Part shown: positions 6,709 through 63,804 of the stretch, one piece after another
Numbering within the stretch: the stretch's first letter is position 1
Layout: each line of letters starts with the position of its first letter
The notes under the pieces: model-generated
Database searches by the model: none
What the model was told of the DNA's origin: nothing
Seen by the model: the letters and a program-made list of their open reading frames with translations, nothing else
Assembly: GCA_050179685.1 (NCBI GenBank)
Contig: JBFXEW010000005.1
Coordinates: 13,911 to 77,910 of the forward strand
Length of the DNA stretch: 64,000 nucleotides
Direction: 5' to 3'
From: Salinivirgaceae bacterium
Lineage (GTDB): Bacteria > Bacteroidota > Bacteroidia > Bacteroidales > SZUA-534
Made by a program: the position numbers and the translations under genes

Positions 6709-6710
6709 AT

Positions 6711-6799: not shown

Positions 6800-7402
6800 C
6801 ATCAATGTATCAATCATCCCACCTTATATACTTCAATTGTGAATTAAAGTAACTGTTTTAATACGCTGAATTTTAGACATATATTAATTATAAATAGATT
6901 ATTTTCTACACGAAATCAAATTTCATCAAAATTTAATTAATTTATTGATATCAATAAACTTTGTATATTGTTGATAATACGACCAATACACTTATAATAT
7001 TTGAGTGTTTAATAATGTGAAACTGGATATATTTAAAGACTAGTAAGACCTTTTTTTTGTTCCGGAAAGAATATTTTTAGAAATTAAACTTTATAGCGGC
7101 ATTCGAATAATATCATTCATTTTGAAGAGCTCTCCTACTTTTGAGATTTTATATAATTTTTTTGCGGTTTCCCTTCGGAGCATCGCCTATTTACCATAGC
7201 TGGTAAGGAAAACAATAAAATATTCAAATCTCAGCGGGTTAAGATGCTGAAAAATCAAGCATAAATAGCTGGATATTAATGCAAAAACTTTGTATTATGA
7301 ATGAATGATTTTTAAGGGAACTATAGAAAACTTATAAAAAAGCAGTAAAAAGGAAGGGTTTAAGCCTGTTTTTATGCGGAATTTATTGACGGGAACGAAA
7401 AA

Positions 7403-8661: not shown

Positions 8662-9876
8662 TTACTTTTCGTTTTCTTTTTTAACCAGCGAAACAAACTC
8701 CTCACCAATATCGGGAAGGGTGCTAAAAACCCGTTTCCAACTGGGAAGTCCCGGTACCATGTTTGGATTACTCAAAAAATTGACTCCCGCCTGATAAACA
8801 TTTCGCGACAACAAATCAACCAGGCGTTCTTCTTTAAACCTATCGAAAGCATACCCGTTCATTACGGCATCGTTATGGTACTGGTCCAGAATTTCAAAAG
8901 CAATGGATTGATAAGTAGCCTTTATGCTGCGAAAAAGCCCTTCGTTAAAAACACATCCTTCCGAAGCCAGTTTCGAAAATATAATCCGGGCAATATCGAT
9001 ACTCATTTTTGACAAACCTTTTTCAGGATTATCAAACGATTCGGTATGGTGCTTGTGATCGTAACGATCGGCAATTTCAACCTGGCAAATCCGATTTAAA
9101 GTATAATTTTTATAAACTTCGGCCAACATGCCCAGTTCAAGCCCCCAATCGTTTGGAATACGTATGGAATTCAATACATCGGCTTGCATAGCACACTCGC
9201 CTGAAAGCGCATAACGAAAACCATCGAGGTATTCGAGATACTCCAAGGGTCCTAAAAGTTTTTTTAAGGCCCGAAGCAGCGGCGTTACCAGCAACCTAAC
9301 CATGCGTCCGTTGATTTTTGTATCATCGGCTCTGAAATAATATCCCTTACAAAAGCGATAATTAAAACCCGAAGCAGCAACCGGATAAACTAAACGAGCC
9401 AAAAATTCCCTGTTGTAAGTAAGAATATCGGCACCATGCATGGCTACAACATCAGCTTTTTGTGAAGCCAGCGCATATCCAAAACAAAACCATAGGTTTT
9501 TGCCCAAATTAGAGTTGCCCAACTGAATATTGGCTTCGTTTATCCTGAACTGAAGGTTTTTCATTCCGGGTCCCTCATTCCAGATTATTTGATGGTGTTG
9601 CGGAAGTGCTGAAAAAATTTCACGGGCCTGATTAAAATCAGCAGCATTGGCTGCCTCAAGTCCAATCACTACCTGATTCAAATAAGGAATATCCTTAATT
9701 ACCTGTACCATATTTTTTAATGCCGGACGACTAAGATCGCTACCAGGCATGGGTATAATTAAACTTATTGGATGCAAATTTTTACACTGCACCAGCTCTT
9801 GCTCCATATCGGCTATTGGCCGATGCTTAAAATTATGAAAAGTCGTAACACAGGAATTCTGATAAAAATCGCCCAT
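8662..9876 (-). CDS. GT-A glycosyltransferase resembling mannosyl-/glucosyl-glycerate (or -3-phosphoglycerate) synthases
   Basis: 404 aa. The layout HGADIL...YFRADDTKINGRMVRLLV...LSGECAM...NDWGLELGML parallels the GT78/GT81-type glycosylglycerate synthase architecture as I remember it. It lies next to glycerate kinase. Confidence 0.45.
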   Translation of the reverse strand: MGDFYQNSCVTTFHNFKHRPIADMEQELVQCKNLHPISLIIPMPGSDLSRPALKNMVQVIKDIPYLNQVVIGLEAANAADFNQAREIFSALPQHHQIIWNEGPGMKNLQFRINEANIQLGNSNLGKNLWFCFGYALASQKADVVAMHGADILTYNREFLARLVYPVAASGFNYRFCKGYYFRADDTKINGRMVRLLVTPLLRALKKLLGPLEYLEYLDGFRYALSGECAMQADVLNSIRIPNDWGLELGMLAEVYKNYTLNRICQVEIADRYDHKHHTESFDNPEKGLSKMSIDIARIIFSKLASEGCVFNEGLFRSIKATYQSIAFEILDQYHNDAVMNGYAFDRFKEERLVDLLSRNVYQAGVNFLSNPNMVPGLPSWKRVFSTLPDIGEEFVSLVKKENEK

Positions 9877-10008
9877 AATACAAAATATTTAAGTTTCACT
9901 TAAAATATATGCCTAAAGTTAAGTAAATTCATCTGAATTTTAATCGCATTATAGGTGTGGTTTTTTTCAATTACGAAAAACATTTGTTCATATATAAAAA
10001 ACAGAACC

Positions 10009-10773
10009 ATGAATAAAATTTTGATATTGCTAATTGTAGGAAGTTTAATGTGTTCATTTATAAGCTGTTCAAATTCAAAGAAAACAAAAATTGAGCATCA
10101 AAAAACTGAAAATACTTACCTGGCTTTTAAAGCTCAAACTCCTCCTGAAATCGATGGTTTATTAAATGACGACTGCTGGAAATCAGCTATATGGGATACA
10201 CTCGATCAAGTCTGGTTGGGAGCAGCTTTTAGTCCCGACGATTTTCAAGGGCGTTACTGCATAGCCTGGGACGATAGTTTGTTGTATCTTTTTTTAGAAA
10301 TAATTGACGACTCACTGACTAATTTTTACAGCAATCCTTTAGTTCAGTATTGGGACGATGATTGTGTCGAAGTATTTATTGATGAAGACCATTCCGGAGG
10401 CAATCACCAATTCAATCATCAGGCTTTTGCTTACCATATAAGTTCCACAATGGACGCTATCGACATTGGGCCTGATAAACAAGCCCATTATTACAATCAC
10501 CATATTAAAGGAGCCATCAATCAAAATAAAACAAAATATTCATGGGAACTGGCCATCCGGATTTTTGGGAAAGCATATTCCGATTCTACAGACGATAATC
10601 GGCCTTTAACCTTAACAAACAATAAAACCATGGGATTCAGTCTGGCCTACTGCGATAACGACAGCTCGGAATTTCGTGAAAATTTTATTGGTTCAGTGAA
10701 TAGCCCGGGGCATTTTAATAACGATGGCTGGATAGATGCCAGTTGCTTTGGCAAATTAATTTTGGTGGAATAG
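10009..10773 (+). CDS. lipoprotein with CBM9-like carbohydrate-binding domain
   Basis: The ATG at 10009 gives MNKILILLIVGSLMCSFISCS (lipobox). The PPEIDGLLNDDCWKSA...DDDCVEVFIDEDHSGG pattern is typical of family-9-like binding modules. The upstream GTG at 9955 is less likely. Confidence 0.55.
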   Translation: MNKILILLIVGSLMCSFISCSNSKKTKIEHQKTENTYLAFKAQTPPEIDGLLNDDCWKSAIWDTLDQVWLGAAFSPDDFQGRYCIAWDDSLLYLFLEIIDDSLTNFYSNPLVQYWDDDCVEVFIDEDHSGGNHQFNHQAFAYHISSTMDAIDIGPDKQAHYYNHHIKGAINQNKTKYSWELAIRIFGKAYSDSTDDNRPLTLTNNKTMGFSLAYCDNDSSEFRENFIGSVNSPGHFNNDGWIDASCFGKLILVE

Positions 10774-10779
10774 CTTTAT

Positions 10780-11214
10780 TTATCCAACCAACGACAAAGT
10801 AAAGTAAGCCCAAACGGCATAACGAGCGGCCTTTCCTATCAACATTCCGATGCCTACCCGCAATGGCGATACGTGCAATAAGCCCAGTGCAACCGCAATT
10901 ACGTCGCCTACCAAAGGCAACCAGCAAAAAAATGCAATCCAGGCTTCTTTACCCGCAATAAAAGTTTTAAAACGCTCAAGTTTTGTATTATCAATTCTCA
11001 GGTATTTTTCAATCCATACTTCCTTACCCAAATATCCAAGATAAAAAGAAGTTAGTCCTCCCAACCAATTTCCTAAAGTAGCAAGAATAAGACTTGGAAT
11101 GGCGGCATATCCCGCAGCCAACATTCCCGACAAAATTACTTCAGAACTAAATGGCACTACCGTTGCTGCCAAAAAACTGGCTAAAAAAAGTCCCCAATAT
11201 CCTAACTCAAACAT
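10780..11214 (-). CDS. YqaA/DedA-family membrane protein
   Basis: 144 aa with 4 predicted TM segments. The N-terminus GYWGLFLASFLAATVVPFSSEV is characteristic of the family. Confidence 0.7.
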   Translation of the reverse strand: MFELGYWGLFLASFLAATVVPFSSEVILSGMLAAGYAAIPSLILATLGNWLGGLTSFYLGYLGKEVWIEKYLRIDNTKLERFKTFIAGKEAWIAFFCWLPLVGDVIAVALGLLHVSPLRVGIGMLIGKAARYAVWAYFTLSLVG

Positions 11215-11475
11215 CTTTTATAGTTATCTGTGGCATTTAATCTGAAAAATATACTGTAGCAATTTATTTTGTTGAATGCGGGCTCAAAAATAAGAAAAGA
11301 AAGCAAAGTACAGTAACAATAAGCAAATTGCTACAACACTTCGCATTGATGGCTTTGCTTTAACTTTTAAAACGCAAGCAATACGAATTAAATCATAGGC
11401 AAACATGTTTTCAAGCGCTTGCAGTTTTCTTTTATAAAACCTCAATTTTCGTTTCATTTGTGAAAAAATTTGAAT

Positions 11476-12039
11476 ATGGCTTTTCTTACCCTGCTCTTAA
11501 TTGCAGTTGGACTGGCAATGGATAGTGTTACGGTTTCCATTTCGTGTGGATTGATTCTATATAAATTCAATTTCCGAAACAGCCTTCGCATTGCCCTGTT
11601 TATGGGTTTTTTTCAAGGTTTGATGCCTGTACTTGGTTGGATGCTAGGAAGTACTTTTAACGAATATGTACTATCGGTAGATCACTGGATTGCTTTTGCT
11701 ATTCTTCTGTTCCTGGGATTACGCATGATTTATGAGCATTTTACTACCCGCGACGATTTTAAATGCTTCGATCCTACCAGCTATAAAGTATTAACCGGCT
11801 TGGCTCTTGCTACCAGCATTGATGCTTTAGCCGTTGGAATTACATTCAGTTTAATCGAGATTTCAATCCTTTATTCAGGGCTCCTGATTGGTTTTACATC
11901 ATTCGTACTTTCTTTTTTCGCAGTTTATCTGGGGAGTAAATTCAAGCAAAAAATGAAAATCCCCTTTGAACTAATCGGAGGTTTAATTTTAATATTAATT
12001 GGTATAAAAATTCTGATTGAACATTTATCGACTCATTAA
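11476..12039 (+). CDS. mntP: manganese efflux pump MntP
   Basis: AFLTLLLIAVGLAMDSVTVSIS... and the second half-repeat TSIDALAVGITFS match the MntP duplicated-domain pattern. The ORF track starts at TTG 11470; ATG 11476 is preferred. Confidence 0.85.
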   Translation: MAFLTLLLIAVGLAMDSVTVSISCGLILYKFNFRNSLRIALFMGFFQGLMPVLGWMLGSTFNEYVLSVDHWIAFAILLFLGLRMIYEHFTTRDDFKCFDPTSYKVLTGLALATSIDALAVGITFSLIEISILYSGLLIGFTSFVLSFFAVYLGSKFKQKMKIPFELIGGLILILIGIKILIEHLSTH

Positions 12040-12098
12040 AATTATACATTTACACCCAAACTTTAAACGAAAACTTTTGTTTAACTAAACTTTATTCA

Positions 12099-14141
12099 AT
12101 GAAAAAACTATTGGTTATGATAACATTTGCAGGAATGCTGGCAACAGCTTGTCAGAATACTTCGAAGGAACCTGATAACGAAAACAGTTTCAGCTATTTG
12201 GTGGAACAGTTTGCTGATTTAAAAATAATGCGCTATCAGGTGCCCGGATTTGATTCCCTTACACTAAAACAAAAAGAATTGGTTTACTACCTGAGTCAGG
12301 CTGCTTTGTGCGGACGTGATATACTGTATGATCAGTTTTATGAGCACAACCTGACGGTGCGAAAAACCAACGAAGCTATTATTGAAAGCTTTACAGGCAA
12401 CAGAGAAACGGAGGAGTTTATTAATTTTACCACTTATGTTAAACGGGTTTGGTTCAGTAATGGTATTCACCATCATTACAGTACCGATAAGTTTTTCCCG
12501 GAAATTGAACCCTCTTATTTTGCTGAATTGATTAAGCAGAGCAATCAGGAATTGTTTCCCTTAAAAAACGGGGAATCGATGGATGAATTCATACAACGTA
12601 TTACTCCGATTATTTTTGATAAAGAATTGGATGCCAAACGAATTGTTCTCGACAGTTCAAAAGACATTGTTAAGGCATCGGCATCAAATTTTTATAAAAA
12701 CGTATCGCAGGTCGAAGTAGAAACTTTCAACGCATCGTTTATACAACCTAATCCTGATAAACCACTTTCAGTTGGGCTAAACAGTCAATTGGTAAAAGAA
12801 AACGGCGTGGTTAACGAACGGGTTTACAAAGCCGATGGATTGTATGGAGCTGCCATAAAGCAAATCATATTTTGGCTCGAAAAAGCCAAATCGGTTGCAG
12901 AAAATCACATACAGGAAAAAACACTGGAACTGCTTATATCTTATTATCAAACCGGCGATTTAAAAACCTGGGACGATTTGAATGTGGTTTGGGTCGAAGA
13001 TTCTTTATCGAGCATCGATTTTGTTAATGGATTTATCGAAAACTATGGCGATCCGATGGGAATGAAAGCTACCTGGGAAAGTGTAGTGAATTTTAAAGAT
13101 AAGGAAGCTACCAAACGTACCGAAATTATAAGTTCAAATGCCCAGTGGTTCGAAGACAATGCGCCTATCGATCCCCGCTTTAAAAAGCCTGAAGTAAAAG
13201 GCGTTTCGGCTAAAGTAATAACCGTAGCTCAATTGGGCGGCGACTGTTATCCTTCAACACCCATTGGCATTAACCTGCCCAATGCCGACTGGATTCGTCG
13301 CGATCACGGTTCCAAATCGGTAACCATGGAAAATATAACTTATGCCTACGACAAAGCTGCCGAAGGAAACGGTTTTCTGGAAGAATTTGCCGCATCGGCC
13401 GAAGAAATTTCGCTGGCAAAAACTTTTGGCCCAAAAGCCGGAAACCTGCATACCGATTTGCATGAATGCCTGGGGCATGGTTCAGGTCAATTGTTACCCG
13501 GAACCAGTTCCGAAGCATTAAAAAACTACAGCTCAGCACTGGAAGAATCTCGTGCCGATTTATTTGCACTGTATTACCTGGGCGATGAAAAAATGATTGA
13601 ACTGGGGTTAATTGAATCGTTTAATGTGGCTAAAGCAGAATACAACAGTTATTTACGAAACGGAATAATGACTCAGCTTACCCGTATTCAACCCGGAAAA
13701 AACATTGAACAGGCACACATGCGCAACCGCCAGCTTATTTCCAGATGGTGTCTCGAAAAAGGAGCCGACGAAAAAGTGGTTGAACTAATAAAGAAAGAAG
13801 GAAAAAGCTATGTGGTAATTAACGACTACCATAAACTTCGTAGTTTATTTGGAGAATTGCTTGCCGAAATGCAGCGCATCAAATCAGAAGGCGATTACGA
13901 AGCCGGTAAACATTTGGTTGAAACGTATGGAGTACAAGTCGATCCTGAACTTCATGCCGAAGTATTGGAACGTTATAAAAAACTAAACATTGCTCCCTAC
14001 GGAGGTTTTGTGAATCCGGTTTTTACTCCGGTTTACGATAACAATCAATTGGTTGATATAAAGGTTGATTACAGCGAAGGATATACCGAACAAATGCTTC
14101 GTTACAGTAAAGATTTTTCGTTTTTACCTGCTGAAAATTAA
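12099..14141 (+). CDS. dipeptidyl-peptidase III family (M49) metallopeptidase, lipoprotein
   Basis: 680 aa with a lipoprotein signal (LATAC), zinc motif HECLGH and second motif EESRADL, diagnostic for M49. Confidence 0.8.
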   Translation: MKKLLVMITFAGMLATACQNTSKEPDNENSFSYLVEQFADLKIMRYQVPGFDSLTLKQKELVYYLSQAALCGRDILYDQFYEHNLTVRKTNEAIIESFTGNRETEEFINFTTYVKRVWFSNGIHHHYSTDKFFPEIEPSYFAELIKQSNQELFPLKNGESMDEFIQRITPIIFDKELDAKRIVLDSSKDIVKASASNFYKNVSQVEVETFNASFIQPNPDKPLSVGLNSQLVKENGVVNERVYKADGLYGAAIKQIIFWLEKAKSVAENHIQEKTLELLISYYQTGDLKTWDDLNVVWVEDSLSSIDFVNGFIENYGDPMGMKATWESVVNFKDKEATKRTEIISSNAQWFEDNAPIDPRFKKPEVKGVSAKVITVAQLGGDCYPSTPIGINLPNADWIRRDHGSKSVTMENITYAYDKAAEGNGFLEEFAASAEEISLAKTFGPKAGNLHTDLHECLGHGSGQLLPGTSSEALKNYSSALEESRADLFALYYLGDEKMIELGLIESFNVAKAEYNSYLRNGIMTQLTRIQPGKNIEQAHMRNRQLISRWCLEKGADEKVVELIKKEGKSYVVINDYHKLRSLFGELLAEMQRIKSEGDYEAGKHLVETYGVQVDPELHAEVLERYKKLNIAPYGGFVNPVFTPVYDNNQLVDIKVDYSEGYTEQMLRYSKDFSFLPAEN

Positions 14142-37502: not shown

Positions 37503-37660
37503 GTTTGTTTAGAGTTTAGATGTTAGAGATTAGATATTTGACTTGAGACTTAAGACTAGAGACTAGAAACCAGAAACCTGTCTCTGCTTACTCACTATTC
37601 ACTGTTCACTATTCACTATTCACTATTAACTATTCACTATTCATTGTTAATTGTTAATTC
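37503..37660 (-). repeat. heptad-array block (modules A-B-C read on the minus strand) abutting the methyltransferase start codon
   Basis: On the + strand: TAGAGAC/TAAGACT-type 7-mers (~37509-37578), TATTCAC-type 7-mers (~37591-37645) and TGTTAAT 7-mers (~37644-37660). Confidence 0.85.
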
Positions 37661-37800
37661 AATGTCGTTTAGTTAAGCAGACTTCACCCTCCGCCCTTCG
37701 GGCACCTCTCCGCCGCGGCGGAAGGACTAGCTCTGTTCCATCGTTGCAGGTATCCCCTTGAGGGGATTATAGGGGTGAATTTCTTTAACTAAACGACATT
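37661..37800. mobile_element. 140-bp element bounded by perfect 16-bp inverted repeats, nested inside a TGTTAAT array (MITE-like or long-stem RNA)
   Basis: AATGTCGTTTAGTTAA (37661-37676) is the inverted repeat of TTAACTAAACGACATT (37785-37800). The interior has GCCC-TTCG-GGC (37693-37703), the 14-bp palindrome TCCGCCGCGGCGGA (37709-37722) and ATCCCCT-TGA-GGGGAT. Confidence 0.4.
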
Positions 37801-37856
37801 AATTGTTAATTGTTAATTGCTAATTGTTCATTGTTAATTGCTAATTGTTAATTGTT
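37801..37856 (-). repeat. TGTTAAT/TGCTAAT heptad array (module A) containing the symporter stop codon
   Basis: Eight consecutive 7-mers. The symporter stop TAA is the complement of 37848-37850. Confidence 0.85.
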
Positions 37857-39305
37857 CCTGGCCGGCTTTATCAGCAAGGTACTAATCACGGCAGCTGCCA
37901 AAGCTACAAAAAAGGTAAGCAAACGCGAGGTAATTTCTTTATCCATACCACTGCTTATCCAGATAATGGTAAAAGCCAGTCCGCTGATTATGGTGATAAT
38001 AACGGCAATGCCATGGTAACGCTTCCAGAACAGGGTTAACAAAATAACCACCGAAAAGGTGCCCCCGATACCTGCCCATACATAACTCACCAACGAATAT
38101 ATCAGGGTGGTTTTTCCGAAATAGGCTATGCTTAAGGCGATGATAGCAATTAACCCGGTAATGAGGCGCGAAAACAGCAGCGCCCGCTTTTGAAAAAAGG
38201 CCTTCCCGAAAAGGGGTTGCAGCAGGTTATCGGTCAGCTCGGTGGCTGAAAGAATTAGCAGGGAATCGGCTGTCGATATCATGGCAGCAATGGCTCCGGT
38301 AATCAGAATAGCTGCTATGACCGGAGGAAAAATGGTTAACAGCACCGAAGGCATCACCAGTTCACGATCGGTCAATCCCTCCGGACCGAACAGGGCCAGC
38401 CCTATCCATCCAATACTTAGTGCACCCAGGTAAGCCACCAGTGTCCAGACAATGCCTACATTTCGTGCCTTTTTGGCTTGCCGGGCATCCTTAATGGCCA
38501 TAAAACGCATGCTTAGCTGAGGTTGACCACCCAGGTAACCAAAAAACCAGGAGAATCCGCCCACCAGGGCAACACCTGCGGTAAAGCCCTGCAATCCGCC
38601 GCTTAAGGAGGTGTATTCGCTTCCGGCCTGATGCAAGGCCTGCGAAATATTTGTAGCATACAGGTCGGGATGATTGGCCAGGTAAATAAAGCCAACAATG
38701 GGACCGGCTACCAGGGTAATAATCATCATCAGGGCTTGAATCACATCGGTATAAACCACACTCATAAAGCCCCCATAAATGGTGTAAGGCACAATAATGG
38801 CAGCGGTAATCAGCATGCCCGTTTTGGCATCGATGGCAAACATGGTGTTCAGGGTTTTTCCCCCTCCTAAAAACTGGGCACCCACATAAAAGAAAAAGAA
38901 AAACACAATGGTTGCGCTGCCTATCATACGGATGTATTGCTCCACCTCGCCATGTTTGCGGGCAATAAAAGCGGTAAAGGTGCTTACCTGGTATTTTTCG
39001 GCTGCATCGCGCAAGCGCCAGGCAATAAGCGCCCAGGCCGTAATAATACCTGTCACACAGCCCAGGGCCGTCCATATTTCGAGCAGTCCGGTGGCATAAG
39101 CTGCTCCGGGCAGTCCCAGCAAGGCCCACGACGATTCGCCCGTGGCACGCTCCGATAAGGCTGCCACCCAGCCGGGCAGTTGACGGCCTGCAATGGCGTA
39201 ATCGGCACTGTTTTTAACTTTTCGTCCCTGGTAAATGCCCCAGGCTATAAGCAGCGAGAGGTAGGTAACCATTACCAGCAGCAGTTGGGTGTTTTGTAGT
39301 TCCAT
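37848..39305 (-). CDS. sodium:solute symporter family transporter (PutP-like)
   Basis: The start at Met-18 of the ORF (39305) gives MELQNTQLLLV... The ...DYAIAGRQLPGWVAALSERATGESSWALLGLPGAAY pattern parallels PutP/SSF N-termini. About 13 TM segments. Confidence 0.85.
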   Translation of the reverse strand: MELQNTQLLLVMVTYLSLLIAWGIYQGRKVKNSADYAIAGRQLPGWVAALSERATGESSWALLGLPGAAYATGLLEIWTALGCVTGIITAWALIAWRLRDAAEKYQVSTFTAFIARKHGEVEQYIRMIGSATIVFFFFFYVGAQFLGGGKTLNTMFAIDAKTGMLITAAIIVPYTIYGGFMSVVYTDVIQALMMIITLVAGPIVGFIYLANHPDLYATNISQALHQAGSEYTSLSGGLQGFTAGVALVGGFSWFFGYLGGQPQLSMRFMAIKDARQAKKARNVGIVWTLVAYLGALSIGWIGLALFGPEGLTDRELVMPSVLLTIFPPVIAAILITGAIAAMISTADSLLILSATELTDNLLQPLFGKAFFQKRALLFSRLITGLIAIIALSIAYFGKTTLIYSLVSYVWAGIGGTFSVVILLTLFWKRYHGIAVIITIISGLAFTIIWISSGMDKEITSRLLTFFVALAAAVISTLLIKPARNN

Positions 39306-39596
39306 ACGTTGCTTTGTTTTAGGCAAACTAAGATAAGAAATTTCTGTTTGGTACAAAAAGACTTGCTGGTTGTTGGTTTTTAGAGATTAGACTTTAGACA
39401 TTAGACTAAAGACTTAAGACCAGAGACTTGAGATTAGAGATTAGAGACTAGAGACTAGAGACCAGAGACTAGAGACTAGAAACCAGAATCTTGTTAACTG
39501 CTTACTCACTTTTCACTTTTCATTATTCACTTTTCACTTTTCACTATTCACTATTCACTTTTCACTATTCACTTTTCACTGTTAATTGTTCATTGC

Positions 39597-39979
39597 TTTT
39601 AGGCTGAGGATTTCGAACTGCTGCCTGTGGACTGTGGACATGAAAGACCAACCCTCCGGGTTGAACAATAATAGCCGTAGGTAAAACCTACGGATTGATA
39701 ACCCACCAAGCCCGAACCCTGCAAGGGTTCAATAAATGCAAGATGTTTTGGAATCTTCGTAGCGTTTTCTGTGGACTGCCGACTATTGGCTACCGGCTGC
39801 TGGCGGTGCATGACAGACAGGTATTCCATGGCAAATTATTGCTTGCACCGCTTTTTGATTTGCATTCGCTAATTCTACCGACCTTCAACCCCTCCGGGGT
39901 TTTTGTATGTCTTACTACCTATTAATAATTATTAATTAGTTTTGCCGAATACTACCAACCAGGAACTGCTTGAAATCAG
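39597..39979. ncRNA. repeat core copy 1, candidate structured RNA (strand unresolved)
   Basis: Perfect hairpins at 39650-39662, 39675-39693, 39714-39730, 39803-39851 and 39887-39901 (+TTTT). No credible CDS. Confidence 0.3.
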
Positions 39980-40095
39980 TATATAGACATTAGACTAGAG
40001 ACTTGAGACTAGAGACTAGAAATCAGAATCTTGTTAACTGCTCACTCACTTTTCACTTTTCATTATTCACTATTCACTGTTAATTGTTCATTGCT

Positions 40096-40480
40096 ATTTG
40101 GCTGAGGACTTTGAACTATTGCCTTTGGGCTGTGGACATGAAAGACAAACCCGGAGGGTTGAACAATAATAGCCGTAGGTAAAACCTACGGATTGATAAC
40201 CCACCAAGCCCGAACCCTGCAAGGGTTCAATAAATGCAAGGTGTTTTGGAATCTTCGTAGTGTTTTCTGTGGACTGCCGACTATTGGCTACCGGCTGCTG
40301 GCGGTGCATGACAGACAGGTATTCCATGGCAAATTATTGCTTGCACCGCTTTTTGATTTGCATTCGCTAATTCTACCGACCTTCAACCCCTCCGGGGTTT
40401 TTGTATGTCTTACTACCTATTAATAATTATTAATTAGTTTTGCCGAATACTACCAACCAGGAACTGCTTGAAATTAGTAT
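40096..40480. ncRNA. repeat core copy 2, candidate structured RNA (strand unresolved)
   Basis: Same hairpin set as copy 1. Substitutions cluster in the first ~60 nt. Confidence 0.3.
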
Positions 40481-40596
40481 ATAGACATTAGACTAAAGAC
40501 TAGAGACTAGAGACTAGAAACCAGAAACCAACTGCGTACTCATTATTCACTTTTCACTATTCACTATTCACTATTCACTGTTAATTGTTCATTGCT

Positions 40597-40854
40597 TTTA
40601 GGCTGAGGATTTCGAACTGCTGCCTGTGGACTGTGGACATGAAATACAAACCCGGAGGGTTGAACAATAATAGCCGTAGGTAAAACCTACGGATTGATAA
40701 CCCACCAAGCCCGAACCCTGCAAGGGTTCAATAAATGCAAGATGTTTTGGAATCTTCGTAGCATTTTCTGTGGACTGCCGACTATTGGCTACCGGCTGCT
40801 GGCGGTGCATGACAGACAGGTATTCCATGGCAAATTATTGCTTGCACCGCTTTT
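40597..40854. ncRNA. repeat core copy 3 (truncated/diverged after 40854)
   Basis: Matches copies 1 and 2 up to CTTGCACCGCTTTT, then is replaced by other hairpins (CCCCGGG-TTCACA-CCCGGGG 40873-40892; AAACCC..GGGTTT 40904-40920). Confidence 0.3.
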
Positions 40855-40993
40855 AACCGGATAAAATACATTCCCCGGGTTCACACCCGGGGCTATTATA
40901 ATGAAACCCCTTCAGGGTTTTCGCCTTATTGTCGTAAGATGATTTGATTGAAGATTAATGATTTTCAATTATAATCCGTGAGAACTTCGTCGT

Positions 40994-41048
40994 TTTTGAT
41001 ATTCGATATTTGGTATTTGATTTTTGTTCATTGATAATTGCTAATTGC
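40994..41048 (-). repeat. heptad arrays (modules A and D read on the minus strand) just downstream of the OmpA-operon terminator
   Basis: + strand GATATTC GATATTT GGTATTT GATTTTT, then GTTCATT GATAATT GCTAATT. This is the reverse complement of the A-D arrangement at 63631-63715. Confidence 0.8.
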
Positions 41049-41078
41049 CTGATGCTGGCAGAAGACTCGAATCCTTAC

Positions 41079-41107
41079 AAAAAAAGGGAGCACCTTGCGG
41101 CGCTCCC
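41079..41107 (-). terminator. rho-independent terminator of the 41902->41134 operon
   Basis: On the minus strand GGGAGCGCC-GCAA-GGTGCTCCC is followed by TTTTTTT, 27 nt after the stop at 41134. Confidence 0.75.
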
Positions 41108-41133
41108 CCAAAATGGAATTCCCTACTGCTTTG

Positions 41134-41376
41134 TCATTCCAATTTTTCCTTCAATTCTTTTTCCAGTTTATTAACTTGTTGCTGCAACGAACTAAGCTGG
41201 TTTTTCAGTTTATCGTTTTCGTCCTGAATTTCGTTTAACTTTTGAGTGTAGATGGCCTTGTAATAAAAATAAGCAGTCAGGTAACCAATAAGTGCAGCTA
41301 CCAACAGTAGTATCACCATCTCGATAATAGACCCGGTGCGGGTTTGTGCCAAAATTATAGTCAATGTATTCATCAT
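41134..41376 (-). CDS. small single-pass membrane protein with C-terminal coiled coil
   Basis: 80 aa with TM segment IIEMVILLLVAALIGYLTAYFYY, then the heptad-like NEIQDENDKLKNQLSSLQQQVNKLEKELKEKLE. It starts 5 nt after the OmpA-like gene ends. Confidence 0.5.
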   Translation of the reverse strand: MMNTLTIILAQTRTGSIIEMVILLLVAALIGYLTAYFYYKAIYTQKLNEIQDENDKLKNQLSSLQQQVNKLEKELKEKLE

Positions 41377-41380
41377 GTCT

Positions 41381-41902
41381 TTATTTTAAGGTTATTTCTG
41401 CTCTTCTATTGTCAGCCCGCCCTTTTTGGGTGGCATTATCAGCTATGGGTTCAGTCTCTCCTTTCGACGAAATCTTGATACGTTCGGGAGCCAGTCCCTG
41501 GCCTTCGAACCAGTCTTGTACCGCCTGTGCCCTTTCCAGTCCCAGCTTTTGATTGTAAGCCTGGGTTCCAACGGCATCGGTGTGACCTACAATATCGAGG
41601 TAGCGTGTCGCTTCCTCATCCAGGTAGGGCTTTACTTTGTTCAGGTAAAGTTCCAACGCTGCTTTCGATTTGAGTACCGCTTTATCAAAATCGAAATGTG
41701 TTAGCTCTGTCCGGGTAATCTCATCGGTTAATGGTAGCTTTTCAGGTACTTGTACCACCAGGGTGTCTTTTACAAGCGGTTCGGCTTGAATGGCAGTGGC
41801 TTCAGGAATATCAATTCCTGTCTTTATTTTATTTACATACCACCAGGTGGCCAGCCATGCCCAAAGACAAAACACCAGAAATCCGGTAATTAAAATTCTC
41901 AT
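41381..41902 (-). CDS. OmpA/MotB-family peptidoglycan-binding protein with N-terminal TM anchor
   Basis: 173 aa. The segment VGHTDAVGTQAYNQKLGLERAQAV...NRRAEITLK is the OmpA_C-like signature. Confidence 0.8.
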   Translation of the reverse strand: MRILITGFLVFCLWAWLATWWYVNKIKTGIDIPEATAIQAEPLVKDTLVVQVPEKLPLTDEITRTELTHFDFDKAVLKSKAALELYLNKVKPYLDEEATRYLDIVGHTDAVGTQAYNQKLGLERAQAVQDWFEGQGLAPERIKISSKGETEPIADNATQKGRADNRRAEITLK

Positions 41903-42116
41903 AAGGCAGATAAATTAAATGAATAGTAAAAATCGCCCTAGCAATTTAACAAATTATTGGCAGAATACCAGCTAAATTTTTAATTTTTAATGCCTTGCCA
42001 AAGCAAAATCATTACTATTACCGACTGGCAAGTAATAAGTATGGGCCCGGGAATGAACAAGCAAGGCAGAAAATTGTACCTTTAGCACAGCATACCACAA
42101 ATAAAAATAGTTACTT

Positions 42117-42698
42117 ATGGAACCAACAAAACGCTGTGCCTGGGCCGAAAAACAGCTGGATGCCTACAAAGTTTATCACGATACCGAATGGGGCGTACCG
42201 GTGTACGACGATAAAAAACTTTTCGAATTCCTGATTCTGGAAGGTGCACAGGCTGGCTTATCCTGGCTTACCATCTTAAAACGGCGCGATGGCTACCGCA
42301 AGGCCTTTGCCGGTTTCGATGTGGAAAAGGTAGCCCGTTTCGATGCCAAGAAAGTGGAAGAGCTGATGCTGGATGCAGGCATCATACGCAATCGCCTGAA
42401 GATTGAGGCCGCTATATCGAATGCCAAAATCTTTTTAGCCATTCAAAAAGAATTCGGATCCTTTAGTAAGTACATGTGGAACTTTGTAAATGGCAAGCCC
42501 ATTCAAAATAAGTTCCAACACATTAGTGAATTACCGGCCACCACCCCGCTGTCGGATGCCATTTCGAAGGATTTAAAAAAGCGGGGTATGAAATTCGTGG
42601 GCTCCACCATAATTTACGCTCACATGCAGGCCACAGGCATGGTAAACGATCACACCACCGATTGCTTCAGGCACAAACAATTGGCAATTAACAATTAA
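42117..42698 (+). CDS. tag: DNA-3-methyladenine glycosylase I
   Basis: 193 aa with YHDTEWGVPVYDDKKLFEFLILEGAQAGLSW and C-terminal zinc-ligand residues (H..DC). Confidence 0.9.
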   Translation: MEPTKRCAWAEKQLDAYKVYHDTEWGVPVYDDKKLFEFLILEGAQAGLSWLTILKRRDGYRKAFAGFDVEKVARFDAKKVEELMLDAGIIRNRLKIEAAISNAKIFLAIQKEFGSFSKYMWNFVNGKPIQNKFQHISELPATTPLSDAISKDLKKRGMKFVGSTIIYAHMQATGMVNDHTTDCFRHKQLAINN

Positions 42699-43292
42699 CA
42701 ATGAGCAATGAGCAATGAGCAATTAACAATAAACAATGAGGTACCAGGTGACAGTCTTCAGCTTGCAGTTTACAGCCAAGGAACAATTAATAATGAGCAA
42801 TGGGCAATTAGCAATAGAACACTGAATAGTGAATAGTGAATAGTGAATAGTGAATAATGAATAAAAAAACAATGGATTAGTCGGCAGACTTCAGTTCGCA
42901 ACCTCAGATTAGCAGTAAACCCCGGAGGGGTCAGAGGTCGGTAGAATAATAGCTTTCTTCGATAATAGCGGTGCAAGCAGAAAGATTGCCATTCAAATCA
43001 AAAATACCATGCACCGCAACCAGTAAACAGCAAACAGTGGCCGTTTACAGCCAAAGAACAATTATCAATTAACAATTAACAATTATCAATTAACAATAAA
43101 CAATGAGGTACCAGGCGACAGTCTTCAGTTTGCAGTTTACAGCCAAGGAACAATTAATAATGAGCAATGGGCAATTAGCAATAGAACACTGAATAGTGAA
43201 TAGTGAAAAATAAGTAATAAATTAAGTCATGTGTCTTAAGTCTTGTGTCTTAAGTCTTAAGTCTAATGTCTAAAATCTAGCATCTAGAATCC
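42678..43292 (+). repeat. composite repeat region: heptad modules A, B, C, a 121-bp direct duplication (period 367) and a partial repeat core
   Basis: 42720-42840 matches 43087-43207 with 2 mismatches. The core fragment ~42867-43020 shares AACCCCGGAGGGGT, GGTCGGTAGAAT and the GCGGTGCA...TGCACCGC stem with the reverse complement of the 39.6-40.9 kb cores. The C-module TAAGTCT array ends 24 nt before blc. Confidence 0.9.
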
Positions 43293-46193: not shown

Positions 46194-47285
46194 ATGGGTG
46201 AGATTTTTGATCAGGTAAAAAAAGCGCTGGAATACGGAATTCCCTTTGCCGTATGGGTAAAACCCGGTGAGCAAAAGGTAAACCATCTGTTTTGTCGCCC
46301 CGATGCGGTGATTAAAACCTATACCTTAAGTCAGCTCGATAAACATAAGGGTTTTGTGTTCGCCCCTTTCCAGGTTTGCAAGCACCTGCCCATTTATATT
46401 TTACCTTTCGATGCACAAATCGGTATGGCCGATTTTAAAGGAAGCAAACCCCGTAAACGTTTTGATGCCCCCGGCGATACCGAAACTTTTGTAGTTGAAA
46501 AATCACGAAAAGAACACATCCGGCAGGTTGAAGTTTTTTTAAAAACTTTTAAAGAAACCGGCATGCAAAAAGCCGTGTTGTCGCGAAATAAATGGTTGCC
46601 TGATTATTCTATTGAGCACCTTCCTGAATTGTATAGCGAATTACACCAGAACTATCCGAATGCTTTTGTGTATCAGATTTACCTGCCCCAGGTGGGTTAT
46701 TGGATTGGTGCTACCCCCGAATTACTCTTTTCGACACAAAATGGAAGTGCCACTACCGTTTCTCTGGCCGGAACCCAGCCTTTAAGAAATACGAATGAAG
46801 TTGTCTGGGATCAAAAAGAAGCCCGGGAACAGGAACTGGTAACCGAGCATATTCGTAGCGTATTAAGTTCGTTCCAGATAAACGATTTTAGCGAACAGGG
46901 ACCCGAAACCGCTGTAGCCGGTAACATGGTCCATCTGAAAACTGTACTTGAATTCAGTAAAGAAAATATTAAAAACCGTATCGGAACATTTATCGAAAAA
47001 TTACATCCAACACCGGCTGTTTGCGGACTCCCGGTGAAAGAATCGATGGAATTGATTCTGGAAACCGAAGGTTACGACCGCGAATACTATACCGGGTTTC
47101 TGGGTCCCTTCGACCCCACCCAAACCATCGATTTGTTTGTGAACCTAAGATGCCTGCAAGCATTCGACAATGGAGTGGTTTTGTATGCAGGGGGCGGCAT
47201 TACTCCCGAATCGGATCCGGAAAAAGAATGGGAAGAAACCCGTATCAAAATACAAACCTTAGAACGCATATTGGAAAAAATATAA
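46194..47285 (+). CDS. menF: isochorismate synthase
   Basis: 363 aa with chorismate-binding blocks LHPTPAVCGLP, EYYTGFLGP and AGGGITPESDPEKEWEET. Confidence 0.8.
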   Translation: MGEIFDQVKKALEYGIPFAVWVKPGEQKVNHLFCRPDAVIKTYTLSQLDKHKGFVFAPFQVCKHLPIYILPFDAQIGMADFKGSKPRKRFDAPGDTETFVVEKSRKEHIRQVEVFLKTFKETGMQKAVLSRNKWLPDYSIEHLPELYSELHQNYPNAFVYQIYLPQVGYWIGATPELLFSTQNGSATTVSLAGTQPLRNTNEVVWDQKEAREQELVTEHIRSVLSSFQINDFSEQGPETAVAGNMVHLKTVLEFSKENIKNRIGTFIEKLHPTPAVCGLPVKESMELILETEGYDREYYTGFLGPFDPTQTIDLFVNLRCLQAFDNGVVLYAGGGITPESDPEKEWEETRIKIQTLERILEKI

Positions 47286-47287
47286 GC

Positions 47288-48970
47288 ATGCAATATACGG
47301 GCAGCAATAAACCCATAGTTAAGCTTTTGTTGGAGCAGTGTTTTATTCATGGAATAAAGCATGTGGTAATTGCTCCCGGTTCGCGCAATGCCCCTTTAAT
47401 TATTTCATTTGCCAATCATCGCGGATTTACGTGTTATTCCATCCCCGACGAACGCAGCGCCGGCTTTTATGCCATGGGAATGGCACGCCAGCTAAATGAG
47501 CCGGTGGCCGTGGTCTGTACTTCGGGAACAGCGGTTTTAAATCTGGCTCCGGCCTTAACCGAAGCGTATTATCAGGAAATTCCCGTAATTGCAATAACAG
47601 CCGATCGTCCGCCCGAATGGATTGATCAGGAAGATGGCCAAACCATCCGCCAGGAATTTATCTTTCAGAATCACATTCGCTCTTCCGTTTCCCTGCCATC
47701 GGGACTTCAGGATTGTGATATCATGAATGCCCGGGCCATGCTCGACCAGGCTTTACTAAAAGCGCACGGACATCCTAAAGGTCCTGTTCATATCAACGTA
47801 CCTTTTCACGAACCACTCTACGATACGCAAACACTGCCTTTCGATGTTCAGTTGGGAGTTTTTGAGCCGCAAATAAAATCGAATTATGCAGAAGTTAAAA
47901 ACGAAGTACTGCACCAAGTAAGTTTATTCCAAAAAATACTGATAATAATTGGGGTTAAGCTTCCTAATCAGGAGATGGAGCAACTACTGAACCAACTGGC
48001 CGACGATAATAATTTTGTTGTGCTCGCTCCTGCTTCGGCCAACATACGGGGAACAAACATACTAAATCAAGCCGAGGCCCTGGCTTTATCGTTGAACTCA
48101 GAACAGAATCTGAATTTTAAACCCGATGTACTTATCAGTTTTGGAGGGCCTGTTGTGTCGAAAGCCGCCAAACAATGGCTGCGCAGCGTAAAACCTTTTA
48201 TTCATTTCGATGTCGATGAAAATCCAGAGCAGGTAAATACCTACGAAAGTTTAAGTCTTAAAATTACCGAAAATCCCATACAGGTATTGCGCGATTTATT
48301 GGCAACACCGGCAAAAAATGAAGATTACCAGCAGCTTTGGCAAGAGCTAAACCATAAAGTTATTGACAAACAAACAGAATTCAATACTACTTGTCCCTGG
48401 AGCGATTATTCTATTTACCAAACATTTTTTGATTGGCTAACATTTCCTGTCGATTTGCATCTGGCCAACAGTACTCCGGTGCGCTACGCCGAATTGTTTG
48501 ACAAACACCCCATGATAAACTATTTCGGAAATCGTGGTACCAGTGGCATTGACGGGTCGACCAGCACCGCAGCCGGAGCAGCACTGGCATCGGGCAAAAC
48601 TACCTGGTTACTTACCGGCGATATTGCCTTTGTGTACGACAGCAATGCCTTTTGGAACCGTCACCTGCCCAACAACTTAAAAGTAATTGTAATTAATAAT
48701 CAGGGAGGAAATATTTTCCGCTTAATACCGGGGCCTGATAGTACAGAACAATTGGAATCATTTTTTGAAACCCGCCAAACCACCCAAATTGAAAAGCTTT
48801 GTCAGGCTTTTCAGGTGAACTACCTTTCGGCAAACAACAACGATGAATTAATTCAAGGGCTTGAGCAGCTTAAAAACAACACGGCATGTACCGTGCTCGA
48901 AGTTTTTACCGATGCAGCTACAAGTGCTGAGCAATTCAGAAAGTTGTATCGGGCTTACCGAAATTTATAA
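47288..48970 (+). CDS. menD: 2-succinyl-5-enolpyruvyl-6-hydroxy-3-cyclohexene-1-carboxylate synthase
   Basis: ATG at 47288 (Met-90 of the ORF-track entry) gives ...GIKHVVIAPGSRNAPL..., with TPP-binding GTSGIDGSTSTA...GDIAF...NNQGGNIF. Confidence 0.9.
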   Translation: MQYTGSNKPIVKLLLEQCFIHGIKHVVIAPGSRNAPLIISFANHRGFTCYSIPDERSAGFYAMGMARQLNEPVAVVCTSGTAVLNLAPALTEAYYQEIPVIAITADRPPEWIDQEDGQTIRQEFIFQNHIRSSVSLPSGLQDCDIMNARAMLDQALLKAHGHPKGPVHINVPFHEPLYDTQTLPFDVQLGVFEPQIKSNYAEVKNEVLHQVSLFQKILIIIGVKLPNQEMEQLLNQLADDNNFVVLAPASANIRGTNILNQAEALALSLNSEQNLNFKPDVLISFGGPVVSKAAKQWLRSVKPFIHFDVDENPEQVNTYESLSLKITENPIQVLRDLLATPAKNEDYQQLWQELNHKVIDKQTEFNTTCPWSDYSIYQTFFDWLTFPVDLHLANSTPVRYAELFDKHPMINYFGNRGTSGIDGSTSTAAGAALASGKTTWLLTGDIAFVYDSNAFWNRHLPNNLKVIVINNQGGNIFRLIPGPDSTEQLESFFETRQTTQIEKLCQAFQVNYLSANNNDELIQGLEQLKNNTACTVLEVFTDAATSAEQFRKLYRAYRNL

Positions 48971-55477: not shown

Positions 55478-55971
55478 GCTAATCCGGCTTATTTTTACTT
55501 TTCGGCTAATTCCCTTCTGTTAGTGTCCAGAGTGGCATTTTGTTATTTGTTCAGGCAAAATAGATGTTTTATAATAGCCTCCATTTTTGAATAAATATAC
55601 ATGCAAAACAACATCAGTCATTCCATTGTATGATATTTGTCATGTTTTTGATGTCAAATATTAAATTTGCGCTGTATTTTGCTTTCTGTTTTTTGAACAA
55701 CCATTTTCTTTACTGTTCAATATAATCCATATTTCTATCTATAAATCTATTTATCAGTGGATTATTTAACTTGCATAATTGTAAGCAATTTAGGTATTGC
55801 AAAAGCCTATCTTTTTAACCATATTTAAATTTGAATGAATATCGTATTGGTTGTGTGAGGGTTAATTTTAATGGCAAAAATACAACTTTTATGCCCCAAT
55901 ACTGTTGACAGGATAAACCTGTATGAGTGCTTTTAAATTATAACGAAAACTACAGTAAAATAAAGAGTTTT

Positions 55972-62345: not shown

Positions 62346-63632
62346 ATGATAAAACAAGTATTGTTTATCGTTCTGTTGTCGGTTACCTTAGTGGTTTTTG
62401 CCTTTACGGTAAACCGGCTTTGGAAGCTATTCCGGCTGACAAAAAAAACCCCTCCGATAAAAGACTGGGGCAAACGGTTTAACCTGACGCTGGCTGTTGC
62501 CTTTGGGCAAAGCAAAATTCTTCGCAAACCACTGATTGGCTTCCTCCACGCGCTGGTATTCTGGGGCTTTCTGGTTATCACGGTGGGCAGTATCGAAATG
62601 GTTATCGATGGTGTCTTTGGTCTGGAACGAGCCTTTGCCGGCAGTGGCTGGTTTTATAAGGTAATTACCGCTTCGGGCGATGTGTTTGCCTACATCATCG
62701 CCTTAGGAATCATTGCTTTTCTGGTTCGCAGGCAGTTTATGCAGATAAAACGCTTCAGCGGCATTGAACTGAAACCCAAGAATAAGCGCGATGCGAACCT
62801 GGCGCTGGCTATGATTCTCTTTCTGATGATTTCACTTATCGGAATTAATCTGGCTTACCTGAATCAAAAGCCTGAACCGGTGCTGGGTCTTTATCCGATT
62901 TCCGGTTTATTGGCCAACTATTGGCAAATAAATCTGACCCAGGCTCATGTAGTTTTTGAAGTAAGCTGGTGGAGTCACATTCTGTTGATATTTATTTTTG
63001 CGAACTACCTGCCCTACTCCAAGCACTTCCATGTGTTTATGTCGATTCCCAATGTCTTTTTCAGTAATCTGGAACCCCTGGGAAAACTTCCTAACATGGA
63101 AGCTGTAACCAAAGAAGTTCAGTTGATGCTGGGCGGCAATGCGTTTCAGGATACCGGCGACCAGGCTCCTGCCCGCTTTGGGGTAAAGGATGTGGAAGAT
63201 GTGAGTTGGAAAAATTATATGGATGCCTTAACCTGCACCCAGTGCGGACGTTGTACCGAGGTTTGTCCGGCCAACCTGACCGGCAAAAAGCTATCGCCGC
63301 GAAAAATATTTGTGGATCTGCGGAACCGGATGAACGAGAAAGGCCTGCAACTAATTAAGAACCCGGAATACACCGACCAGAAAGCACTGGTCAGCGACGA
63401 ATACATCAGCTACGAAGAGCTTTGGGCCTGTACCACCTGCAATGCCTGTGCCCAGGAATGTCCCCTGAATATCAGTCATCCGAACCTGATAATGGATATG
63501 CGGCGGTACCTGGTAATGGAAGAAGGACGCGCTCCGTCGGGTATTAATGCCATGTTTGCCAATATCGAAAACAACGGTGCTCCCTGGCAATTCTCACCCG
63601 AAGACCGTCTGGAATGGACGAAGGGGGATTGA
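62346..63632 (+). CDS. membrane-anchored 2x[4Fe-4S] ferredoxin-domain oxidoreductase subunit (HdrD/GlpC-like; candidate ETF:menaquinone oxidoreductase part 1)
   Basis: 428 aa with ~5 N-terminal TM helices, then CTQCGRCTEVCP and CTTCNACAQECP. It directly follows etfBA. Confidence 0.7.
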   Translation: MIKQVLFIVLLSVTLVVFAFTVNRLWKLFRLTKKTPPIKDWGKRFNLTLAVAFGQSKILRKPLIGFLHALVFWGFLVITVGSIEMVIDGVFGLERAFAGSGWFYKVITASGDVFAYIIALGIIAFLVRRQFMQIKRFSGIELKPKNKRDANLALAMILFLMISLIGINLAYLNQKPEPVLGLYPISGLLANYWQINLTQAHVVFEVSWWSHILLIFIFANYLPYSKHFHVFMSIPNVFFSNLEPLGKLPNMEAVTKEVQLMLGGNAFQDTGDQAPARFGVKDVEDVSWKNYMDALTCTQCGRCTEVCPANLTGKKLSPRKIFVDLRNRMNEKGLQLIKNPEYTDQKALVSDEYISYEELWACTTCNACAQECPLNISHPNLIMDMRRYLVMEEGRAPSGINAMFANIENNGAPWQFSPEDRLEWTKGD

Positions 63633-63804
63633 CAATGAGCAATTAACAATGAGCAATTAACAATGAATAATTATCAATGAACAATTATCAAATACCAAAA
63701 AATCAAATATCAAAAATTCTCAAGTATTAAGTCTAGAATCTAATTTCTAAAGTCTAAATTCTAGTTTCTAGAAGTCTAGCAACCAGAGACAAGAGACCAG
63801 AAAC
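63630..63804 (+). repeat. heptad arrays (modules A-D-C) filling the gap between the two Fe-S oxidoreductase genes
   Basis: CAATGAG/CAATTAA 7-mers start at the TGA stop (63630), followed by CAAATAC/CAAATAT-type, TAAGTCT/AAAGTCT/AGTTTCT-type and CAGAGAC AAGAGAC CAGAAAC. The ATG lies 42 nt later. Confidence 0.85.

Follow-up and report, generated by a model that had tools for sequence, protein, structure and literature searches.

The 64,000-nucleotide (nt) stretch of DNA analysed here (hereafter the window; 40.8% G+C) derives from contig JBFXEW010000005.1 of a Salinivirgaceae bacterium (Bacteroidota) and carries, in four gaps between genes on the same strand, tandem arrays of seven-nucleotide units. 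We refer to these gaps as R1 to R4 and to the heptamer families as modules A (units CAATTAA, CAATGAG, and CAATTAG), B (TGAATAG and TGAAAAG), C (TAGTCTC, TAAGTCT, and TAATCTC), and D (CAAATAC and CAAATAT). The array-bearing gaps are flanked as follows.

R1, minus strand: sodium:solute symporter gene upstream, methyltransferase gene downstream
R2, minus strand: gene for an 80-amino-acid (aa) membrane protein upstream, the symporter gene downstream
R3, plus strand: Tag glycosylase gene upstream, lipocalin gene downstream
R4, plus strand: 4Fe-4S protein gene upstream, a gene with its ATG at 63847 downstream

Tandem Repeats Finder, applied to the 64-kb window, confined the period-7 arrays and their 14- and 21-nt multiples to 37507-37856, 39379-41048, 42676-43292, and 63628-63779, with period-7 rows of up to 11 copies. 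An autocorrelation scan over periods of 2-15 returned 138 scan windows at period 7, 65 at period 14, and 0 at all others. Being head-to-tail repeats of a 1-11 nt unit that run longer than chance, the arrays count as long simple sequence repeats. In R1 and R2, classification with regular expressions assigned modules A, B, and C to the minus strand (C<B<A by coordinate), in R3 and R4 to the plus strand (A<B<C), and it revealed nothing comparable to these ordered arrays in the rest of the 64 kb. In the coding direction, each gap runs from A through B or D to C, and in duplicated composites the order reiterates as A-B-C-A-B-C. A first-pass annotation of this DNA had proposed one module order at four gaps; the classification confirmed it, and the order recurs at R1-R3 in five relatives. 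Two other large co-directional gaps, 6709-7402 (694 nt) and 55478-55926 (449 nt), hold neither heptamer arrays nor a gathering-level Rfam match.

In R1, R3, and R4, module A begins within or right at the stop codon of the preceding gene; in R2, it begins ~35 nt 3' of a strong intrinsic terminator. From the end of module C to the next ATG there remain 6 nt (R1), 73 nt (R2), 24 nt (R3), or ~43-65 nt (R4); the start of the gene after R4, as placed by the first-pass annotation, had to be corrected to 63847. Every A, B, and C unit holds a stop codon, and the 7-nt period spreads the stops over all three sense frames; module D units fail to place stops in all three. Because of these stops, an array can abut or replace the end of the upstream gene. 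R1 module A, for instance, encodes the final two codons of the symporter together with its TAA stop (37848-37850). As for start codons, the arrays give rise to TTG only in A and D units read antisense.

Co-orientation with the flanking genes at four of four sites is weak evidence taken alone (two-sided p = 0.125), and the location of all four sites in co-directional gaps is unremarkable, since 42 of the 52 gaps in the window are co-directional. We rejected the notion that orientation follows replication: the GC skew keeps one sign over 26-46 kb, yet the arrays flip with gene strand at 42 kb. A single continuous 7-nt register through all modules was likewise discarded; it holds from A to B, and in the relative L122, but fails at the B-C junctions of the window, where it shifts by 4-5 nt.

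Syntenic contigs from relatives were reached via homologues of the symporter and Tag, and ~10-20 kb were examined per relative. Nucleotide identity to the window is ~97% for L127, ~91-93% for L128, ~90% for L122, and ~83-92% for L129 and L133; L266 is a more distant Salinivirgaceae relative, with a Tag identical at 74% on the protein level. Two Logan contigs from run SRR27751817, L001 and L126, are 100% identical to the window, and its Tag protein matches at 100% identity an NCBI protein from a Salinivirgaceae metagenome-assembled genome. Since independent assemblies match, an assembly artefact can be excluded as the origin of the arrays. The parts of each gap are listed below from low to high coordinate.

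37503-37578, minus strand: R1 module C, with TAGTCTC/TAAGTCT/TAATCTC-type and GGTTTCT units, ending 6 nt before the methyltransferase ATG (37502)
37579-37593, minus strand: R1 B-C junction, GTGAGTAAGCAGAGACAGG on the coding strand, present again in R2 and L127
37594-37644, minus strand: R1 module B, with TGAATAG, TGAACAG, and TTAATAG units
37661-37801, strand unassigned: insert of ~141 nt resembling a miniature inverted-repeat transposable element (MITE), splitting R1 module A, with perfect 16-nt terminal inverted repeats AATGTCGTTTAGTTAA
37802-37856, minus strand: R1 module A, with CAATTAA, CAATTAG, and CAATGAA units
39306-39378, minus strand: array-free leader/promoter-like sequence of the symporter gene; all relatives keep it with ~90% conservation, L129 with its array-free gap among them
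39379-39598, minus strand: R2 proximal composite, on the coding strand A (2 units), B (~11), junction, C (~15)
39548-40854, minus strand: R2 tandem 498-bp unit, 2.6 copies at 94-97% identity
40873-40919, plus strand: two hairpins linked by GCUAUUAUAAUG, sub-threshold match to the Acido-Lenti-1 RNA motif
40995-41048, minus strand: 5' end of R2, module A then module D, with CAAATAC, CAAATAT, and CGAATAT units, 92.6% conserved in L128
41084-41109, minus strand: intrinsic terminator of the upstream 80-aa gene, an 11-pair stem and T-run, with the R2 arrays downstream
42676-42737, plus strand: first module A of R3, encoding the Tag tail QLAINN and the stop codon (42696-42698)
42740-42781, plus strand: non-array 'pre' motif of R3, GGTACCAGGTGACAGTCTTCAGCTTGCAGTTTACAGCCAAGG, with a second copy at 43107-43148, also in L127, L122, and L133
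42782-42868, plus strand: second A-type array of R3, then module B (TGAATAG, 5 units)
42869-43050, plus strand: hairpin element X', kin to element X in R2 and 73% identical to an element in gap R1 of L133
43057-43207, plus strand: second A, pre, A, B copy in R3, 90% identical to 42685-42855
43222-43292, plus strand: R3 module C, followed after 24 nt by the lipocalin ATG (43317)
63633-63804, plus strand: R4, with module A at 63633-63689, D at 63689-63718, C at 63727-63779, and an inverted C-like stretch at 63780-63804

In R4, module A directly follows the TGA of the 4Fe-4S gene (63630-63632). The arrays had initially been described as filling whole gaps, with inserts that were unique, and neither description held. 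About 1.3 kb of R2 is the tandem 498-bp unit (2.6 copies), each copy of which joins a hairpin-rich element X of ~370 nt to short A, B, and C arrays and bears terminator-like hairpins on the coding strand. The inserts comprise this tandem unit, the MITE-like element of R1, and a hairpin element that is also found in a non-orthologous gap of L133. The R1 insert conforms to MITEs in its terminal inverted repeats, its small size, and its lack of an open reading frame (ORF). It contains three internal GC hairpins (fold z = -5.1 on both strands), shows no clear target duplication in its AT-rich array flanks, and is represented by a single copy each in the window and L127. Two hairpins are common to X and X', with one compensatory change each among only four distinct sequences. 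A 76-aa ORF in X was rejected as a gene; its one database match is to the closest relative, and substitutions that alter amino acids separate its three copies. Scanned against Rfam, the whole window gave no gathering-level match, the only notable sub-threshold one being Acido-Lenti-1 (RF01687) at 40873-40919, with 33.6 bits against a gathering score of 37.

Hairpins adjoin heptamer arrays in other Bacteroidota as well. At a Chitinophagaceae locus (L070:2860-2940), GAACCCC-loop-GGGGTTCAATA hairpins lie directly 3' of a heptamer array and closely resemble the GAACCCTGCAAGGGTTCAATA hairpins in the R2 units of the window (39714-39730, 40212-40228, and 40713-40729). Hairpin repeats of the GCTGAGCGAAGTCGAAGC type flank heptamer arrays at two further loci (L002:6980-7070 and L115:980-1060).

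In the relatives at ~83-97% identity (L127, L128, L122, L129, and L133), arrays occupy R1, R2, and R3 wherever the contig covers the gap, with R2 of L129 as the exception, and their other gaps are free of arrays within the ~10-20 kb. The order A, then B or D, then C is kept in all five. Comparing orthologous gaps, as the first-pass annotation had suggested, revealed both array-length polymorphism and absence: across window and relatives, R1 measures 86-497 nt, R2 181-1743 nt, and R3 153-618 nt (4- to 10-fold ranges), and R2 lacks arrays in L129. R2 of L128 holds the A/D part only, and R3 of L133 is devoid of module B. R1 of L122 has a duplicated composite and no inverted-repeat insert, whereas R1 of L127 carries the insert at the same place and 100% identical to that of the window. 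Between the window and L127, R1 differs by one clean 42-nt (six-unit) indel in module C and by scattered unit substitutions, with 95.5% identity otherwise. Duplications of whole composites are found in R1 of L122, in R2 of the window (the 498-bp unit), and in R3 of the window. The 'pre' motif and X' of window R3 recur at 73-84% identity in R1 of L133, a non-orthologous gap; a metagenome scan with the 'pre' junction pattern matched a single contig, one already in the comparison. A 51-aa gene called within the repeat-rich R2 gap of L127 (L127:7201-7356) is probably spurious and caused by the repeats.

Array-encoded Tag tails (QLAINN, QLTMNNE, and PLTISNEQFAMNNEQ) are present in all homologues at 86-100% protein identity and absent from those at 74-76%, and L266 has no array between its Tag and lipocalin genes. 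At the other end of the scale, arrays are identical among 100%-identical strains from four samples, and likewise for a second strain from three samples. The arrays thus persist for long at particular gaps while their insides change fast, by unit-number multiples of 7 and by composite duplication. They are old at their sites and fast compared with neighbouring genes, but not unstable on a clonal time scale.

Our preferred reading, to which we give about even credence, is that the arrays are heptanucleotide microsatellite composites of the short tandemly repeated repetitive (STRR) or long simple sequence repeat type, which reside in co-directional spacers of one Salinivirgaceae lineage and are tolerated mainly in the sense orientation. 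Unit-multiple indels, composite duplication, and pieces shared between gaps suggest that an ancestral A-B-C composite was reshaped by slipped-strand mispairing and unequal recombination. Module order and orientation would be inherited from that ancestor, because slippage cannot reorder modules. As the 'pre' motif and X' are common to window R3 and L133 R1, sequence was probably copied between array-bearing gaps. Small hairpin elements sit within the arrays, which may attract them. The sense direction would mostly be retained because it is compatible with the sequence on either side; the preference could stem from stop richness, leader-like composition, the lack of TTG starts, and weaker RNA folding. 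We do not think that the arrays are a dedicated switch.

Differing unit numbers between close relatives could also be expected of contingency loci, in which frequent slippage switches or grades downstream expression. In Haemophilus influenzae, the (TGAAAGA)n tracts upstream of hmw1A and hmw2A vary in unit number between strains and modulate expression (PMC2651432). Those tracts are, like the arrays described here, 7-nt tandem repeats between regulatory signals and a start codon, and TGAAAGA is close to the module B unit TGAAAAG. They are, however, perfect repeats at surface-adhesin genes, whereas the arrays of the window are degenerate, do not differ among strains that are themselves 100% identical (four samples, and three for the second strain), and precede housekeeping rather than surface or restriction genes. 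We give this explanation very little credence, in agreement with the first-pass annotation, which had not favoured classical phase variation.

Pieces shared between gaps invite yet another explanation, namely a non-autonomous modular mobile element, comparable to BOX elements or to mosaics of bacterial interspersed mosaic elements (BIMEs), that inserts in one orientation at gene ends and has the arrays as its variable body. 'Pre' and X accompany arrays at non-orthologous gaps, tandem duplication affects entire composites, modules follow a fixed order, and L266 has the composite at a new site. BOX elements, reportedly described in Streptococcus pneumoniae by Martin and colleagues in 1992, are likewise intergenic, with a fixed A-B-C module order and a middle module of variable copy number. 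Their modules are unique sequences of 45-59 nt that form a stable hairpin and are MITE-like, whereas the modules here are non-folding heptamer arrays. Neither terminal inverted repeats nor target duplications, the defined ends of BOX- and MITE-like elements, were found at the composite borders, which gives no support to the oriented insertion mechanism considered in the first-pass annotation; what marks these borders instead is a stop codon or a leader. No clean insertion links the filled R2 to the empty one, the known sites number only three to five and are stable across 83-97% identity, no transposase is among the genes annotated around the arrays, and the composite was not found outside the clade in the metagenome scan and the loci examined. 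On balance, a mobile element seems unlikely.

Under the microsatellite reading that we prefer, the arrays of R1, R3, and R4 are probably transcribed as intercistronic spacers. R4 follows genes for ETF-alpha and a 4Fe-4S protein and may split one operon, and R1 and R3 yielded no terminator-like hairpin on the sense strand. In 10 of 11 segments, among them all 8 array segments, folding is predicted to be weaker for the sense than for the antisense RNA, and the composites have predicted fold z values between -1.4 and +2.8, with no stem-loops. The array RNA would be tolerated, stop-rich, and single-stranded, at most modulating the downstream gene.

These folding predictions bear on the proposal, raised in part by the first-pass annotation, that the arrays are transcription terminators or insulators, or else DNA sites for a nucleoid or regulatory protein. 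The arrays do lie at gene ends, three 7-bp units would span two helical turns and so phase such sites, and the R2 hairpin inserts are terminator-like on the coding strand. Yet the arrays themselves do not form stem-loops, R2 already has a strong terminator of its own upstream of them, R1 and R3 lack a terminator-like site on the sense strand, and a role at the DNA level leaves the strand preference unexplained. We regard this proposal as highly improbable.

The character of native leaders also bears on the microsatellite reading. None of the 56 long ORFs of the window has GGAG, GAGG, or AGGA at -20 to -4, compared to ~7% for random sequence. Native leaders consist of 42% A and 11% G, are enriched in TAA, AAA, AAC, CTA, and ACA, and are depleted of GAG, GGT, and GTG. 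Leader composition and the missing Shine-Dalgarno (SD) motifs fit SD-independent initiation. Modules A and C resemble these leaders in having an A-rich, G-poor sense strand, and CAATTAA has six of its seven 3-mers among those with the strongest enrichment 5' of start codons.

The prevalence and orientation of the units beyond the clade were assessed in genomes and viral contigs (counts are sense:antisense after de-replication). (TGAATAG)3 occurs at at least 120 genome loci across many phyla. Among the matches listed, (TGAATAG)n is not significantly biased over all phyla (31:19), is biased in Bacteroidota genomes (10:2), where it usually starts no more than ~20 nt from the upstream stop codon, and adds no locus for the lineage studied here. 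Among viral contigs, (CAATTAA)3 at 95 loci (34:12; p = 0.0016) and (TGAATAG)3 at 31 loci (14:2; p = 0.004) both favour sense, while two control heptamers of the same composition, with 86 and 49 loci, are unbiased (18:14 and 7:4). Mere A-richness is therefore not supported as the source of the sense bias, though the contrast between controls and module A alone is not significant. The viral (CAATTAA)n arrays typically bridge stop and start codons, lying a median of 3-12 nt from the upstream stop and 15-19 nt from the next ATG. Arrays of A, B, and C together were found nowhere outside the Salinivirgaceae clade in the genome and viral loci examined.

The binomial test of orientation that the first-pass annotation had called for, applied to other genomes and viruses, came out in favour of a bias for viral A and B arrays and for (TGAATAG)n in Bacteroidota, but not for all phyla. 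A sense preference has independent backing from the counts of 34:12, 14:2, and 10:2. The annotation's wording 'always co-oriented' fits the four sites of the window but is contradicted by L266, which has an antisense composite. Sense orientation is a tendency, not a rule.

Some arrangements encountered in this survey stand on their own. One viral contig (IMGVR_UViG_3300033146_006796; L150) carries (CAATTAA)n at four separate sites within 3.5 kb (8819-12320), all on one strand. At eleven loci (L012, L066, L067, L072, L080, L089, L091, L092, L102, L106, and L107), (TGAATAG)n is followed within 30-220 nt by its reverse complement (CTATTCA)n; these inverted pairs, which could base-pair, span Acidobacteriota, Planctomycetota, Clostridia, Campylobacterota, and Bacteroidota. 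At L062:3770-3870, units grade stepwise from CGGTAAA through CGGTGAA and CAGTGAA to TAGTGAA, similar in kind to the A-to-B transition of the window (CAATTAA, CAATGAA, TAATGAA, TAGTGAA). The idea that such arrays are typical of SD-poor phages was dropped: the SD measure was crude and of small range (Bacteroidota 0.10, Clostridia 0.29), and the control heptamers lay in SD-poorer contigs.

Could the arrays serve as mRNA platforms bound by a protein that recognises single-stranded RNA, for example ribosomal protein S1, a cold-shock protein, or an RRM protein? If so, they would be SD-independent translational enhancers or mark a small post-transcriptional regulon, with unit number tuning the output. 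The viral (CAATTAA)n bridges between stop and start codons, a sense bias above that of controls, weakly folded sense RNA, and a genome without SD motifs all accord with this idea. The omega leader of tobacco mosaic virus (TMV), an S1-binding sequence that boosts translation in bacteria, contains ACAAUUAC repeats and (CAA)n. Its repeats resemble the module A unit ACAAUUAA, and both sequences are unstructured and A-rich; omega is, however, a fixed viral 5' leader, whereas module A of the window lies far from the start codon, and enhancement there would be an extrapolation by analogy. The same proposal has been made for TAACTGA repeats (MacGregor 2015; PMC4679880). Set against it are the position of module A, which in the window lies opposite the start codon across the gap, R2 arrays that lie upstream of a likely promoter, flanking genes that are unrelated housekeeping genes, an array-free R2 in L129, and an R3 without module B in L133. 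The comparison with controls is marginal only, and the binding partner is purely hypothetical. We rather doubt, but do take seriously, that the arrays act as such platforms.

Several observations also weigh against our preferred microsatellite reading. Stop codons do not distinguish the two strands for CAATTAA or for C units, and module B is G-rich (24-28%), unlike native leaders. In R2, the arrays have a terminator on one side and a conserved promoter-like leader on the other and may be outside any mature transcript, yet keep the same polarity; transcription through arrays is in any case presumed from sequence. The fixed order could also reflect a function of each module. In L266, an A-to-C composite is on the minus strand between plus-strand lipA-like and FAD-binding genes. 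Statistically, module A does not differ significantly from the controls (Fisher p = 0.12; A and B pooled, p = 0.05), and (TAGTCTC)n in viral contigs, where C-type arrays are rare, counts 0:3.

A bolder conception sees A-B-C as a functional, directional intercistronic cassette of SD-less Bacteroidota and their phages. The A/B part would halt ribosomes in every frame, A and C would jointly recruit an RNA-binding protein (S1 or RRM) that restarts translation, and the strength of coupling would depend on unit number. Recombination would carry the cassette from gap to gap, where it would also offer a docking site for small hairpin elements. We hold this to be decidedly unlikely.

Bacterial heptanucleotide arrays, including STRRs, long simple sequence repeats, and TAACTGA repeats, have been known for decades, and to our knowledge none has an accepted function. 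The STRRs of heterocystous cyanobacteria, reportedly described by Mazel and colleagues in 1990, proved an apt choice as closest precedent in the first-pass annotation; Jackman and Mulligan are said to have spoken in 1995 of STRR regions as 'highly variable but structured intergenic regions'. Like STRRs, the arrays of the window consist of tandem intergenic 7-nt units of several families per genome, vary between close relatives, and are associated with hairpins. STRRs are scattered over many loci of a genome, and their consensus units are CCCCAGT, TTGGTCA, and CAACAGT, whereas those of the window are CAATTAA, TGAATAG, TAGTCTC, and CAAATAC and occur in Salinivirgaceae, not heterocystous cyanobacteria. 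We know of no fixed three-module order from stop to start among STRRs. Mrazek et al. (2007) reportedly present heptanucleotides as the commonest class of long simple sequence repeats and propose polymerase slippage as their source; this is a statistical category that predicts neither module order nor strand polarity.

The first-pass annotation knew of no equivalent in Bacteroidota, but TAACTGA and other heptamer direct repeats have been described in Beggiatoaceae, Cyanobacteria, and five Bacteroidetes (MacGregor 2015; PMC4679880). In that study, arrays are intergenic, mostly 'forward' to the downstream start, contain stops in all forward frames, and may overlap gene ends; Gramella, Aequorivita, and Elizabethkingia carry mixed heptamer assemblages, and close relatives lack arrays at the same gaps. 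The arrays of the window are similarly intergenic, forward at four of four sites (with one exception in L266), and equipped with A, B, and C stops in three frames. They differ in that tandem TAACTGA is absent (0 in the window) and in having three to four families in fixed order, persistence at sites across species, and embedded hairpins.

On the practical side, the arrays break short-read assemblies (contigs L001 and L126 end within the R3 duplication) and shift gene-end calls, as in the C-terminal tails of Tag and several spurious ORFs. Apart from the arrays, the listed ORFs 46194-47285 and 47021-48970 share 265 nt; the second was probably assigned too early a start (TTG at 47021), and its counterpart in relatives begins directly after the chorismate-binding gene.

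What is new here is the fixed order of three to four modules, its persistence across species at the same gaps, the array-encoded gene ends, and the embedded hairpin elements. With its graded relatives, its polar fixed order, and arrays that extend into coding ends, the locus offers testable constructs for translation without Shine-Dalgarno sequences.

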